DNA from: Escherichia coli
Lineage (GTDB): Bacteria > Pseudomonadota > Gammaproteobacteria > Enterobacterales > Enterobacteriaceae
Assembly (NCBI RefSeq): GCF_044324875.1
Contig: NZ_CP172185.1
Length of the DNA stretch: 64,000 nucleotides
Direction: 5' to 3' (one strand)
A program made the position numbers and the translations under genes. Below the pieces are notes generated by a model. That model ran no database searches, was not told the origin of the DNA, and saw only the letters and a list, made by a program, of their open reading frames with translations. Shown in pieces: positions 47,645 through 50,480 of the stretch (positions within the stretch are counted from its first letter, which is position 1; every line of letters begins with the position of its first letter).

Positions 47645-48946
47645 TTACATTAGCCCTAGTAGCTGTGGAATGAACAAGGATATTTGCGGGATGTAAGTGA
47701 TCATCATCAACGCGATTAACAATGCGGCATAAAATGGCAGCAATGGTTTGATCAAATGTTGAATCTTCACACCTGAAATAGAACAACCAACAAATAGCGC
47801 ACTACCCACCGGCGGTGTTAACAGCCCAATACAAAGGTTAGCCACCATCATAATACCGAAATGTACCGGATCCATTCCCAGCTCTTGTGCAATCGGCAAG
47901 AAGATTGGTGTGAAGATTAGTACAGCCGGTGTCATGTCCATAAAGATGCCGACAATTAATAAGACGATATTAATCAGCAGCAATATGATCAGTGGGTTAT
48001 CAGAAATCCCCATCAACGCGTCGCTGATCATATAAGGAATATCAGCATTGGTCATTGACCAGGACATGCCCACGGAAAAACCGATCAACAGTAATACAAT
48101 CGAAGTGGTAACAACCGATTCCAGAATCAGTTTGGGTAAATCGCGCCATTTTACTTCCCGGTAAATCAGCACCGAGAGAATAAATGTGTAGACAACGGCA
48201 ATCGCAGACGCTTCAGTTGCGGTAAAAATGCCGCCCAGAATGCCGCCCATTACAATGAACACCAGAAGCAAACTTGGTAAGGCATCCAGAAACGCTTTAC
48301 AGGCCTGAGCAAAGGTTGCTCTTTCTGAAAGTGGGTAGCCACGGCGTTTAGCAATAATGCCGCAGACTATCATTACCGCAAGACCCATTAAGATCCCTGG
48401 CAAATATCCCGCCATAAATAACGATGCTACAGAAACGCCGCCAGCTGTCAGGGAAAACACAATTAACACGTTTGAGGGCGGTATCAGTAATCCAGTAATA
48501 CAGGATGAGACGTTTACAGCGGTAGAAAATGCCGGATCATAACCTTCTTTGGTCTGAATGGGATTCAGTGTGCCACCAACGGCAGCAGCTGCCGCAACGG
48601 CTGAACCAGAAATGGAACCAAACATCATATTCGCCAGGACGTTCACATGACCAAGCGAACCAGGAACGCGGCCAACCATTACCTGGGCGAGGTTAATCAA
48701 ACGTATCGCAATACCGCCGCTGTTCATCAGCGTTCCGGCAAAGATGAAAAAGGGGATTGCCAACAGGGCAAAGTTATCCAGTCCATTAGCCAGTCGCTGC
48801 GAAACAGTGATTGCCGCGATATCCCAGGGAAACATCAAAAGCATTGAAGCTACAGTGGCAATACCGATTGAGAACGAAATGGGCACACCAATAAAGACCA
48901 GCACAAAAAAACAGCCAAACAGTGTAAGCGCGATATAACTATCCAT
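47645..48946 (-). CDS. TRAP transporter large permease (DctM family)
   Basis: 433 aa polytopic membrane protein; operon with the two genes upstream. Confidence 0.85.
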   Translation of the reverse strand: MDSYIALTLFGCFFVLVFIGVPISFSIGIATVASMLLMFPWDIAAITVSQRLANGLDNFALLAIPFFIFAGTLMNSGGIAIRLINLAQVMVGRVPGSLGHVNVLANMMFGSISGSAVAAAAAVGGTLNPIQTKEGYDPAFSTAVNVSSCITGLLIPPSNVLIVFSLTAGGVSVASLFMAGYLPGILMGLAVMIVCGIIAKRRGYPLSERATFAQACKAFLDALPSLLLVFIVMGGILGGIFTATEASAIAVVYTFILSVLIYREVKWRDLPKLILESVVTTSIVLLLIGFSVGMSWSMTNADIPYMISDALMGISDNPLIILLLINIVLLIVGIFMDMTPAVLIFTPIFLPIAQELGMDPVHFGIMMVANLCIGLLTPPVGSALFVGCSISGVKIQHLIKPLLPFYAALLIALMMITYIPQISLFIPQLLGLM

Positions 48947-49458
48947 TAACTGGCCTCCTGCGCAGGTTGTTTCAGTTGTTGAATGCTTTGATTAATAAAA
49001 CACAAGGCATAAAACATCATCACCAATCCACTTAATGGCAGAATGATATATACGTATCCCATCGGTATTTGCATCGCGGCAGATACCTGTGATGTTGCCA
49101 GTGTTTTATCAATTAATTTCAGGCCACCAGTCACAATGACCGAACCGGCAAAACCTAAAATAAGAACGTTAATGACTATACTAAGAAGTAATTGCTTGCG
49201 CTTATTCAGGGCGAGAGCAAATAAATCGATAGAGAGATGTCTCTGCGCGCCGACGGTATATGCAGCACCTAATAATCCTACCCAGATCATCAAAAAGCGT
49301 GCTAGCTCATCGGTTAATGTACTTGGCTGGTTAAGTACGTAGCGGCTAAATACTTGCCAGACTACGCATACAACCAGAGCAAGCATTACGGCGACAGAAA
49401 ACGCGGCAATGACGCGGTCTACCGCAAGTTTCAGGCGGTTAAATATCATTGTAAGCAT
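48946..49458 (-). CDS. TRAP transporter small permease (DctQ family)
   Basis: 170 aa, four hydrophobic segments. Confidence 0.8.
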   Translation of the reverse strand: MLTMIFNRLKLAVDRVIAAFSVAVMLALVVCVVWQVFSRYVLNQPSTLTDELARFLMIWVGLLGAAYTVGAQRHLSIDLFALALNKRKQLLLSIVINVLILGFAGSVIVTGGLKLIDKTLATSQVSAAMQIPMGYVYIILPLSGLVMMFYALCFINQSIQQLKQPAQEAS

Positions 49459-49493
49459 CCTGGAAAATCAGGGCCAGAGACTGGCCCGGAATA

Positions 49494-50480
49494 TTATTGA
49501 GCAGCGTTGTCGAATTTCTCTAACAAAGCAGCTTGTTTTGGATCTTTTTTGAAGTCGTCAAACAGAGGCTGAACTGCGGCACGGAATGGGGCTTTATCAA
49601 CCTTAACGATTTCACCACCCATGGCTTTCGCCTGAGCACGTGTGTCAGCGTCAATTTTTTCCCACAATTTTTGTTGATAAGCTTCGGATTTCTTCGCCGC
49701 TGTTTCGAGGATTTGTTGCTGTTCTGGGGTTAATTTATTCCATGTTTTGGTGGAGATAACCAAAAAGTCAGGAATTGAGGCATGTTCATCTTCAGAAAAG
49801 ACTTTGGCAATTTCGATATGTCGAGTCTGCACCCAAGAAGGCACGTTATTTTCTGCGCCGTCTACTACACCTTGCTGCATCGCAGTATAAACTTCGCCAA
49901 ATGAAATTGGAGTGGGTGAGCCCCCCATCAGTTCAATCATTTTGATGGTGGTCGGGCTTGGCTGAACACGAATTTTCAGCCCTTTAAGATCTTCTGGCTT
50001 AGTAATCGGTTTTTTCGCATAGAAACTGCGTGTACCCGCTACATAAGCTGATAAAGCAAAAAAGCCTTTATCTTTTGTTGAATCCATAATTTCTTTACCA
50101 ACTTCACCAAAAACCACTTTGTTGAAGTGCGCCTGATCTTTAAATAAGAACGGCAAATTATAGATAGCATAAATATTATCAAAAGACTCCAGATCACTGG
50201 CGGAACCTTTGGTCATATCCAGTGCACCATTTTGCAACAACTCCATAGTTTCTCGCGCATTACCCATCTGGCTGCTGGGGTAAATACGGATCACCATATT
50301 ACCTTTTGACAGCTGTTTTACTTCTTTCGCCAGCTCTTCAAAACTCTGATGTACAACATGACTTCTTTCCAGGTTGTGTGCTAACTTTAACGTCACTTTT
50401 TCTGCGGCGTTTACGCCAGTGCTAACCAGAGCCAGCAAGGATGCGCAGACTAATGAGCGGGTAAATGACCTCATTTTCAT
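49494..50480 (-). CDS. TRAP transporter periplasmic solute-binding protein (DctP family)
   Basis: 328 aa with signal peptide. Confidence 0.85.
   Translation of the reverse strand: MKMRSFTRSLVCASLLALVSTGVNAAEKVTLKLAHNLERSHVVHQSFEELAKEVKQLSKGNMVIRIYPSSQMGNARETMELLQNGALDMTKGSASDLESFDNIYAIYNLPFLFKDQAHFNKVVFGEVGKEIMDSTKDKGFFALSAYVAGTRSFYAKKPITKPEDLKGLKIRVQPSPTTIKMIELMGGSPTPISFGEVYTAMQQGVVDGAENNVPSWVQTRHIEIAKVFSEDEHASIPDFLVISTKTWNKLTPEQQQILETAAKKSEAYQQKLWEKIDADTRAQAKAMGGEIVKVDKAPFRAAVQPLFDDFKKDPKQAALLEKFDNAAQ

Follow-up and report, generated by a model that had tools for sequence, protein, structure and literature searches.

A hemW-linked TRAP transporter operon of Escherichia coli, probably ancestral in Enterobacteriaceae and likely used for hexuronate uptake

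In the Escherichia coli genome examined here, a TRAP-type transporter operon stands between yggM and hemW, two genes that are direct neighbors in K-12. This raises the question of whether the operon was gained by some E. coli lineages or lost by others, and of what it transports. A first-pass annotation of this DNA took it for a lineage-specific insertion into the core backbone. We argue, from sequence comparison, that it is probably an ancestral Enterobacteriaceae operon linked to hemW, likely serving hexuronate uptake under ExuR/UxuR repression, which was kept in this strain and lost in K-12 and about 73% of E. coli. A literature search returned no paper on the yggM-hemW TRAP locus. All coordinates refer to the window, the whole 64,000-nt stretch of DNA that was analyzed.

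Gene content and limits of the operon

Three minus-strand open reading frames, dctP, dctQ, and dctM, lie between yggM and hemW in the ORF list of the window, and together they encode a complete three-component TRAP uptake system of the DctPQM type. The features of the operon and its ends are as follows:

47605..47637, no strand assigned: bidirectional terminator hairpin with a perfect stem, between the convergent genes yggM (ends at 47589) and dctM (ends at 47645)
47645..48946, minus strand: dctM, large TRAP permease, 433 aa, PF06808
48946..49458, minus strand: dctQ, small TRAP permease, ORF of 170 aa, PF04290 (E = 3.5e-30)
49471..49487, minus strand: terminator-like, GC-rich hairpin within the 35 nt that separate dctP from dctQ; six of its seven pairs are GC
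49494..50480, minus strand: dctP, periplasmic solute-binding protein, 328 aa, PF03480
50768..50793, minus strand: hemW intrinsic terminator, 11-bp stem followed by the U-rich tail CACUUCUUUU

DctP matches Pfam PF03480 (DctP) with an E-value of 2e-84 and scores above the cut-offs of NCBIfam TIGR00787 (285.7 bits, cut-off 175) and NF037995. Its N-terminus reads as a hydrophobic leader or signal peptide ending ..STGVNA/AEK, and its AF2 model (pLDDT 84) has the DctP fold. DctM covers the full PF06808 (DctM) model (E = 2.6e-121), scores 472 bits against TIGR00786 (cut-off 268), and is 88-96% identical in amino acid sequence to its orthologues in Citrobacter, Klebsiella, and Kluyvera. The dctQ and dctM genes are contiguous, with the dctQ stop and the dctM start overlapping by 1 nt; RefSeq places the dctQ start 9 nt downstream in its annotation of the identical gene of strain KE55, which yields a protein of 167 aa. 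As all three genes have the lengths of their orthologues in more than 10 genera, they are intact, in agreement with the first-pass annotation.

The stem at 47605-47637 comprises 12-13 perfect base pairs (TTTGCCGGATAA/TTATCCGGCAAA) with T-runs on either side, and it folds with a dG of -18.6 (z = -5.6) when read on the plus strand and of -16.0 (z = -4.0) on the minus strand. At the opposite end, a palindrome that had been noted on the hemW side proved to be the hemW terminator (dG -17.2 kcal/mol, z about -5.6). Transcription of the operon would start at a promoter of its own, beyond this terminator on the downstream side, and would end at the bidirectional terminator that it has in common with yggM. 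The hairpin between dctP and dctQ (dG -14.3, with a weak z of only -1.95) may act as a partial terminator or mRNA stabilizer, increasing the amount of binding protein relative to permease. An Rfam search returned nothing relevant at the TRAP locus.

Distribution in E. coli and other genera

The entire yggM-TRAP-hemW segment was found in 1,458 of 5,426 complete E. coli genomes (27%), and in the others just the flanking parts were matched. HST04, a K-12 derivative, has yggM and hemW side by side across a 154-bp spacer of REP-type or REP-like repeats, and in O157:H7 and MS7163 there are likewise only REP repeats between the two genes. Homology between the window and K-12 stops exactly at the yggM stop codon. 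The first-pass annotation was therefore correct in placing yggM next to hemW in K-12, and the counter-evidence that it named, the same operon at this position in K-12 and most Escherichia, did not turn up: K-12 lacks the operon and 27% of complete E. coli genomes have it. Within E. coli, the TRAP genes fall into two allele classes, about 97.0-97.5% and about 98.5-99.6% identical to the window, and this difference of a few per cent indicates that they have been in E. coli for a long time. In strain BS-04, an apparent remnant of dctQ between yggM and hemW was considered as proof of a deletion but was discarded, because its long C/T homopolymer runs indicate poor assembly.

Three observations speak for a horizontally acquired, lineage-specific islet inserted at a conserved yggM-hemW junction: K-12 and 73% of complete E. 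coli genomes do not have the operon, homology with K-12 breaks off sharply, and the GC content of the operon is 0.446, compared with 0.525 for hemW in the window and about 0.52-0.56 for the flanks. However, 23 species-representative genomes from at least eight enterobacterial genera, including Citrobacter, Klebsiella, Kluyvera, Pseudocitrobacter, Phytobacter, and Pluralibacter, carry this operon immediately downstream of hemW, and some Salmonella enterica contigs have the gene order hemW-dctPQM-yggM-ansB. E. coli and S. enterica are thus both polymorphic at the identical hemW junction. Nucleotide identity to the other genera is 72-82% for the TRAP genes and 77-91% for the flanking core genes, such that the TRAP genes are no nearer to any sampled donor than their neighbors are. 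GC content of the TRAP genes is 2.7-10 points under that of hemW in Salmonella, Citrobacter, Kluyvera, and Klebsiella, and is lower in every genus compared; low GC is therefore a property of the operon.

Hallmarks of mobility were also sought. The ORF list of the window holds no integrase or IS ORFs at the TRAP borders, no tRNA genes occur in the 40-58 kb portion of the window, and flanking direct repeats are short and at chance level only. One 14-nt direct repeat, AA(T/A)G(G/A)AGTGATTAA, is present at both borders with an 86% match, and it was treated as chance because it does not reproduce the K-12 junction. We consider an inserted islet very improbable. Shared hemW synteny, core-like divergence, the lack of mobility hallmarks, and low GC in every genus compared instead indicate that the locus is most likely ancestral and has been partly lost. 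The original proposal of a lineage-specific insertion thus survives in its description, a complete operon that K-12 lacks and that varies among E. coli strains, but not in its direction, and the evidence speaks against an insertion into the core backbone. In the preferred account of ancestry and loss, the operon would have disappeared from K-12, from some 73% of the E. coli sequenced, and from part of Salmonella, this strain would have retained it, and REP elements would now occupy the gap in E. coli strains that lost it.

Divergence of the hemW 3' end

The history of the locus is complicated by the adjoining end of hemW:

50796..50930, minus strand: hemW 3' end, haplotype linked to TRAP presence, with a drop in identity to K-12

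The hemW gene of the window is 84% identical to that of K-12 over nt 1001-1100 and 73% identical over the last 37 nt, versus 91-99% elsewhere in the gene; those changes that were inspected, within the last 30 nt, do not alter the peptide. One type of 3' end is found in strains with the operon (the window, KE55, and O45:H2) and another in strains without it (K-12, O157:H7, and MS7163), and the hemW genes of O45:H2 and MS7163 have mosaic breakpoints. The diverged 3' end indicates that the locus has a recombination history and that vertical descent with a single deletion is too simple an account. The divergence amounts to 16-27% in the final ~140 nt.

One way to account for this pattern is that the operon was lost by the Escherichia ancestor or early E. 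coli and the TRAP-bearing haplotype then regained from a related Escherichia or enterobacterial lineage by homologous recombination, with a crossover in the hemW 3' end; alternatively, the REP haplotype lacking the operon was imported and spread. Co-segregation of the hemW 3' end with the operon in the six strains, the two mosaic genes, and the confinement of 73-84% identity to the last ~140 nt, with the rest of hemW far closer to K-12, all speak for such an exchange. A scan of representative genomes for exact peptide words returned no E. albertii, E. fergusonii, or E. marmotae, and 'Escherichia sp. MOD1-EC7003' was the only representative of another Escherichia returned, which also fits an earlier loss; as the scan uses exact words, however, other Escherichia species may still carry the operon. 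In nucleotide sequence, no sampled genus is more than about 82% identical to E. coli over the TRAP genes, E. coli itself already holds two diverged classes of TRAP alleles, and comparing the hemW 3' alleles with those of Salmonella, Citrobacter, Kluyvera, and Escherichia sp. gave an ambiguous polarity. We regard regain or import as improbable. A further suggestion, which we offer tentatively and consider unlikely, is that presence and absence of the operon form an old trans-species polymorphism; the diverged hemW 3' end would then mark two haplotypes of long standing under niche-dependent selection, or else an introgression from another Escherichia species. The selection in question would favor or disfavor the high-affinity uptake of scarce uronates from hosts or plants.

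Predicted substrate

By analogy with the family, secreted DctP would use its conserved arginine to bind an organic acid, which it would hand to the DctQM membrane unit, with import driven by an ion gradient. The nine best PDB sequence matches of DctP (4ovr, 4n15, 4ln5, 4mhf, 4mij, 4x8r, 4n91, 4n8y, and 4xfe), which are also its top fold matches, rank ahead of any SiaP, DctP, or other class. Matching the binding protein had been proposed at first pass as a guide to substrate class, and the best matches include the uronate binders 4n91 and 4mhf. We presume that the other seven, 4OVR, 4X8R, 4LN5, and 4N15 among them, are uronate-bound as well. The ligand of 4N91 is D-glucuronate, those of 4MHF are D-glucuronate and D-galacturonate, and 4N15 served as the modeling template for the D-glucuronate binder STM3169, whose pocket residues are N35, Q36, E74, R150, R170, N210, and D237 (PMC7660916).

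Residues R151, R171, and N212 of DctP are invariant in the alignment (R151 and R171 in 20 orthologues), and R151, R171, and N211/N212 match STM3169 R150, R170, and N210 by position. R171, along with R151, would be the arginine that pairs with the carboxylate of the substrate. At a simple +1 offset, N36, R151, R171, N211, and D238 are kept, while L37 and A75 appear in place of STM3169 Q36 and E74; the exact ligand may therefore differ. Gene context bears on the substrate as well. Orthologues with 60% identity to DctP are encoded in Aeromonas rivuli and Pantoea sp. IMH between uxaC-uxaB-uxaA and exuR, in clusters whose matches to the UxaC, tagaturonate reductase, and ExuR equivalogs exceed the cut-offs, and these orthologues and DctP have the pocket motifs AHNL, G-x-x-RE, TRSFY, IRV, AENN, and PDFL in common. 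In E. coli, Salmonella, Citrobacter, and Klebsiella, the operon is an orphan beside hemW, and in E. coli it has no catabolic or regulatory neighbor.

The same architecture could serve another substrate, an aldonate or keto-sugar acid or a C4-dicarboxylate, under a different GntR/FadR repressor; candidates are D-/L-galactonate, 2-keto-3-deoxygluconate, 5-keto-4-deoxyuronate, and a C4-dicarboxylate. The orphan position in E. coli, Salmonella, and Klebsiella, the apparent substitutions at the equivalents of Q36 and E74 (PMC7660916), and identity of only 34-38% to the uronate-binding crystal structures would accord with this. It is harder to reconcile with the ranking of the nine PDB matches ahead of other classes and with the embedding of orthologues that have the same pocket motifs in uxaCBA-exuR clusters. 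We therefore favor a hexuronate, D-galacturonate and/or D-glucuronate, as the most likely substrate, which the transporter would supply with high affinity to the core UxaC/UxaBA/UxuAB pathway, in parallel to the MFS carrier ExuT.

Control region upstream of dctP

The region between the hemW terminator and dctP contains the following predicted elements:

50481..50767, minus strand: AT-rich promoter/operator region serving the TRAP operon and bounded by the terminator of hemW and the start of dctP, GC about 0.36
50505..50524, no strand assigned: weaker GntR/FadR-type half-box ATATCAACCAATTT, by position weight matrix (PWM)
Reverse complement of 50541-50551: weaker GntR/FadR-type half-box TTGTCGCACAA
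50549..50568, no strand assigned: best predicted UxuR/ExuR-type operator box, PWM score 13.3, core AAATTGGTTAACC at 50550-50562
Reverse complement of 50563-50573: weaker GntR/FadR-type half-box TTGTCAGACAG

The AT-rich promoter region described at first pass is borne out by a GC content of 0.355 at 50400-50799, compared to about 0.52-0.55 in hemW and rdgB. Blocks in common with the control regions of other genera are GCGCACAAAA, TGTGA, TTGTC(N)GACA, and CAACCAATT. A sigma-70 consensus scan of the minus strand at 50481-50767 found no promoter. By eye, a candidate -10 element, GATAAT, is located about 50 nt upstream of the dctP ATG. A CRP-like TGTGA half-site is kept across genera, with a poor second half.

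The UxuR/ExuR matrix was built from seven K-12 boxes derived empirically from K-12 promoters. The box at 50549-50568 ranks third among the 63,981 positions of the 64-kb window, and its score falls inside the range of the seven training boxes (9.2-20.7); 1.4% of AT-rich 333-bp windows reach the same score. Its core AAATTGGTTAACC is the same 13-mer that is found in the K-12 uxuA-gntP spacer, where we infer that a UxuR operator sits, and it is unique in the window, with a chance expectation of 0.10. Around the core, the TTGGT-TA-ACC elements are spaced over 12 nt, as they are in the uxuA/uxuR boxes. The half-boxes score 7.0-7.5 and are similar to the K-12 exuT box CTTGTCATACAAC; counterparts conserved in position occur in Citrobacter, Klebsiella, and Kluyvera, namely AGATAT(T/C)(G/A)ACCAATT, ATGTCATACAG, and TTGTCGGACAAC. 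PWM matches in the TRAP promoters of Klebsiella, Kluyvera, and Citrobacter are moderate only (5-10).

Boxes of the form TTGT-N3-ACAA are also used by DgoR, a GntR/FadR protein whose IR1 is TTGTAGTACAA (PMC12288454). As GntR/FadR sugar-acid repressors have similar boxes, the TRAP regulator could be another member of the family, which lends some weight to the alternative of a different substrate and repressor; the uxuA/uxuR-type spacing of the best box counts against it. We regard that alternative as a minority possibility. For the favored hexuronate transporter, ExuR/UxuR would probably repress at the candidate box over the promoter.

Discussion

The operon encodes an accessory transporter that is annotated as a matter of routine and belongs to a family that is well understood, and it carries little weight for basic biology. 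Its interest is ecological: in a quarter of E. coli strains, it would add another way in, probably of high affinity, for glucuronate or galacturonate, which are gut-relevant carbon sources derived from host glucuronides, mucus, and pectin. STM3169 of Salmonella has been linked to macrophage survival. The locus would also be a clean case in which a gene missing from K-12 reflects loss in the reference strain and not gain elsewhere.

The STM3169-STM3171 operon of Salmonella Typhimurium LT2 is also an orphan dctPQM-type operon of an enteric host, and it has likewise been proposed as a high-affinity route beside ExuT into the Uxu/Uxa pathway. It occupies a different chromosomal locus than the hemW-linked operon, presumably about 65 genes from hemW by LT2 gene numbering. 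Its binding protein belongs to the same structural neighborhood (Bamb_6123/4N15, Apre_1383/4N91, and Bpro_3107/4MHF) and has the same Arg/Arg/Asn triad, but differs in having Q36 and E74 where the present DctP appears to have L37 and A75, a comparison made by residue positions. The Kd of STM3169 for D-glucuronate is about 0.2 uM (PMC7660916). The uronate binders of the EFI screen, Bpro_3107 (4MHF/4MIJ), Apre_1383 (4N91), Bamb_6123 (4N15/4N17/4LN5), Xaut (4OVR), and Rsph17029_2138 (4X8R), are the closest matches in sequence (E-values of 4e-68 to 4e-60) and in fold (TM scores of 0.79-0.87). They have the same two-domain DctP fold and carboxylate-binding arginine, at an identity of only 34-38% in structural alignment.

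Aeromonas rivuli and Pantoea sp. IMH have uxaCBA-dctPQM-exuR clusters that encode a binding protein with 60% and a DctM with 75% amino acid identity; the pocket motifs are identical, and strong boxes of the ExuR/UxuR type lie upstream (PWM 14.4 and 11.0). In these clusters, the transporter is linked to enzymes of the galacturonate branch and to the repressor, whereas the E. coli operon stands alone beside hemW. To our knowledge, YiaMNO (2,3-diketo-L-gulonate) is the only TRAP system in E. coli K-12. It has the same three-component architecture but is a distant paralogue at another locus, in the yiaK-S operon, and the present genes score far below the cut-offs of the NCBIfam YiaN and YiaM equivalogs (296 vs 800 and 38 vs 260, respectively). 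GaaPQM of Agrobacterium tumefaciens, referred to as a galacturonate TRAP transporter (Zhao & Binns 2016, as cited in PMC5812351), is also a TRAP system dedicated to a hexuronate, in this case an alphaproteobacterial one.

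Gene content and transcription of the TRAP operon

The yggM-hemW interval of the window holds three adjacent ORFs on the minus strand, dctP, dctQ and dctM, set within the usual trmB-yggL-yggN-ansB-yggM / hemW-rdgB-yggU-yggT-yggS block. The features of the interval are:

46582-47589, plus strand: yggM (DUF1202), flanking gene
47605-47637: perfect 12-bp inverted repeat, common to the convergent yggM and dctM
47645-48946, minus strand: dctM, 433 aa ORF, Pfam DctM E 2.6e-121, full model
48946-49458, minus strand: dctQ, 170 aa ORF, Pfam DctQ E 3.5e-30
49494-50480, minus strand: dctP, solute-binding protein, 328 aa ORF, Pfam DctP E 2e-84
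50768-50793: hemW terminator hairpin, then a U-rich tail, dG -17.2, z -5.6
50796-51932, minus strand: hemW, flanking gene

The three-gene set passes the NCBIfam TRAP subfamily cut-offs, and the operon proteins do not reach the equivalog cut-offs for K-12 YiaM/YiaN. Because their lengths match those of orthologues in many genera, the three genes are intact, as the first-pass annotation had proposed, and judged by sequence the operon has every testable feature of a DctPQM-type TRAP transporter. The palindrome noted earlier beside hemW acts as that gene's terminator. The AT-rich region upstream of dctP corresponds to the 287 bp (GC ~0.36) separating this terminator from the dctP start. This region, together with terminators on both the hemW and yggM sides, makes the operon an independent transcription unit. 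No RNA element was found in it by Rfam search. The 35-nt dctP-dctQ spacer contains a GC-rich hairpin (49471-49487, minus strand; GGGCCAG-TCT-CTGGCCC) followed by U's, with a folding z of only -1.95; it may act in transcription attenuation or mRNA stabilisation and hence yield an excess of binding protein.

Distribution of the operon in E. coli

K-12 lacks the operon, as the first-pass annotation stated: in the K-12 derivative HST04 the yggM-hemW gap is 154 bp of REP-type palindromes, and the stop codons of yggM and hemW are the exact points where homology between the window and K-12 ends and restarts. Nor is the operon general among complete E. coli genomes, 1,458 of 5,426 of which carry the whole yggM-TRAP-hemW segment (1,460 of 5,426 with an operon-only query), a result that likewise favours the first-pass annotation; the operon already bears generic RefSeq annotation in ~1,460 E. 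coli genomes. The remaining genomes, such as O157:H7, MS7163 and Seattle 1946, have only REP repeats at the site; the O157:H7 spacer measures 242 bp and that of MS7163 68 bp. The empty site comprises approximately three REP/BIME-type palindrome units in K-12 (L001:2591-2744), five in O157:H7 (L051:1291-1532) and one to two in MS7163 (L052:1291-1358), and its hemW-side junction is identical in all three (..CGCCGCATCCGGCAATACAA(G/A)TTTA).

In the cattle isolate E. coli SMN152SH1 (NZ_CP024618.1), dctP is split by an IS1 element, an example of ongoing operon inactivation. The TRAP pseudogene annotated by RefSeq in E. coli BS-04 (NZ_CP172819.1; L048:5694-6394) was rejected as an assembly artefact, as most of the yggM-hemW interval in this nominally complete genome is long C and T homopolymer runs, with dctQ fragments among them. 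Three contigs from Collinsella sp., "Bacillota bacterium" and Alicyclobacillaceae bins (L003, L004 and L044) carry hemW/TRAP sequence 99-100% identical to E. coli; the assemblies concerned are most likely contaminated with E. coli DNA. Over window positions 39001-64000, the closest of the complete E. coli genomes searched, strain KE55, reaches only 99.3% identity, so the window derives from an E. coli lineage that has been little sampled; the 25 best matches listed all carry the operon.

Ancestral locus versus insertion

The first-pass annotation read the locus as a lineage-specific insertion. The operon is indeed variable and missing from K-12, but synteny across genera reverses the polarity of the event, pointing to an ancestral locus lost in K-12. 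Relatives were scanned using one genome per species, and 44 loci with close relatives were found. hemW lies directly upstream in the same orientation in 23 of these, including Citrobacter amalonaticus, C. braakii, C. sedlakii, seven Klebsiella species and six Kluyvera, as well as Pseudocitrobacter, Phytobacter, Pluralibacter, unnamed Enterobacteriaceae and Escherichia sp. MOD1-EC7003. At the hemW-linked loci, a yggS-yggT-yggU-rdgB block precedes hemW and (yggM/ansB)-yggN-yggL-trmB follows the operon. A binding protein assigned to Salmonella enterica (including subsp. salamae) is 90% identical, and the gene order on its contigs, hemW-dctP-dctQ-dctM-DUF1202-ansB-yggN, is that of the window.

When the window is compared with Salmonella, Citrobacter, Klebsiella and Kluyvera, the TRAP genes show 72-82% nucleotide identity and the flanking core genes 77-91%, with no closer donor genus among those sampled. 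Within E. coli, TRAP alleles fall into two classes, ~97.0-97.5% (e.g. O111 and O45 strains) and ~98.5-99.6% identical to the window, and are thus a few per cent apart, like ordinary core genes across phylogroups. Operon GC is low, at 0.446, but all genera examined share an operon GC lower than their hemW GC. The operon borders show no integrase, IS element or tRNA gene, and no flanking repeat that is credible. Conserved hemW synteny, core-like divergence and the lack of mobility hallmarks indicate an old locus whose synteny extends across the family. Its patchy presence in E. coli, and apparently in Salmonella, is best explained by loss, and the operon is very probably an ancestral enterobacterial locus now gone from K-12.

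The neighbouring yggM is unstable too, as comparison with loci L006-L040 and L049 shows. Citrobacter and several genomes of Klebsiella and Kluyvera have no yggM between dctM and ansB/yggN. Those Klebsiella, Kluyvera and Phytobacter genomes that do have it share only 33-37% amino acid identity with the window, and the Salmonella gene is ~70% identical in nucleotide sequence, against 80-90% for the neighbours of yggM. In Pantoea sp. IMH (L043), uxaABC-dctPQM-exuR occupies the opposite side of this conserved block, upstream of yggS-yggT-rdgB-hemW, so the transporter is tied to this chromosomal neighbourhood even beyond Enterobacteriaceae.

Haplotypes at the hemW 3' end

Only one feature of the locus is mildly unusual, the haplotype pattern at the hemW 3' end. 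The window and K-12 are 84% identical over hemW nt 1001-1100 and 73% identical over its last 37 nt, versus 91-99% elsewhere in hemW; within the last 30 nt, where the changes were inspected, they are silent at the peptide level. The sharp difference between strains with and without the operon lies in approximately the last 140 nt (window 50796-50930), which looks like a recombination-tract edge or an old haplotype. One 3' end is common to the window, KE55 and O45:H2 and another to K-12, O157:H7 and MS7163, co-segregating with TRAP presence in the six strains compared; farther upstream, hemW of O45:H2 and MS7163 is mosaic. By this pattern the two states act as haplotypes that homologous recombination has shifted. 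One of them may come from a diverged lineage, and outgroup comparison of the 3' alleles gave no clear polarity. A further, unlikely reading takes presence and absence of the operon as haplotypes of long standing that recombine and are kept in both E. coli and Salmonella.

Predicted substrate and regulation

DctP carries a signal peptide, and its residues R151, R171 and N211/N212 are invariant. By sequence and by fold, using an AF2 model (pLDDT 84), its best solved-structure matches are 4ovr, 4n15/4ln5, 4mhf/4mij, 4x8r, 4n91, 4n8y and 4xfe, a set that, when searched by sequence, outranks SiaP and C4-dicarboxylate DctP. 4N91 binds D-glucuronate, and 4MHF takes either D-glucuronate or D-galacturonate; 4N15 served as template in modelling STM3169, the Salmonella Typhimurium LT2 TRAP binding protein, whose Kd for D-glucuronate is ~0.2 uM and whose residues R150, R170 and N210 form a conserved triad (PMC7660916). 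The orthologous operon of Aeromonas rivuli and Pantoea sp. IMH (binding protein 60%, DctM 75% identity, identical pocket motifs) has uxaC-uxaB-uxaA on one side and exuR on the other, and UxaC, tagaturonate reductase and ExuR of these clusters exceed NCBIfam equivalog cut-offs.

A palindromic UxuR/ExuR-type operator matrix was built from seven palindromic boxes that recur in the K-12 exuT-uxaC, exuR, uxuA-gntP and uxuR control regions; the uxuA-gntP spacer is a UxuR binding site in genomic SELEX (PMC5934670). The matrix scores 13.3 at 50549-50568, inside the TRAP promoter (training boxes, 9.2-20.7), the third best score in the 64-kb window and one attained in only 1.4% of similarly AT-rich 333-bp windows. 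The box core, AAATTGGTTAACC, is a 13-mer of the K-12 uxuA-gntP spacer and occurs once in the window. The window's top two scores, 14.7 and 14.5, lie close together at 62357-62376 and 62411-62430 and may simply be chance matches. The Aeromonas and Pantoea operon promoters score 14.4 and 11.0. Lower-scoring, positionally conserved boxes in Citrobacter/Klebsiella/Kluyvera promoters (TTGTCGGACAAC, ATGTCATACAG, GATAT(T/C)(G/A)ACCAATT) are similar to the K-12 exuT box CTTGTCATACAAC. Because related repressors recognise boxes of this kind, as in DgoR IR1, TTGTAGTACAA, ExuR/UxuR is only the putative regulator.

Taken together, the operon probably serves high-affinity uptake of D-galacturonate and/or D-glucuronate. 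The imported hexuronate would enter the core UxaC/UxaBA/UxuAB pathway, uptake would run in parallel with ExuT, and ExuR/UxuR would govern expression.

A search of the available literature found no publication on this yggM-hemW TRAP locus, and the operon is an uncharacterised member of a known TRAP kind. It is a different system from YiaMNO, the TRAP system of K-12. Window DctP falls in the same uronate-binding neighbourhood as STM3169, sharing its triad one position later and, by the same +1 numbering offset, N35 and D237. The STM3169 system differs in lying at another chromosomal locus and in at least two apparent pocket residues, Q36 and E74, which by numbering alone correspond to L37 and A75 in window DctP.
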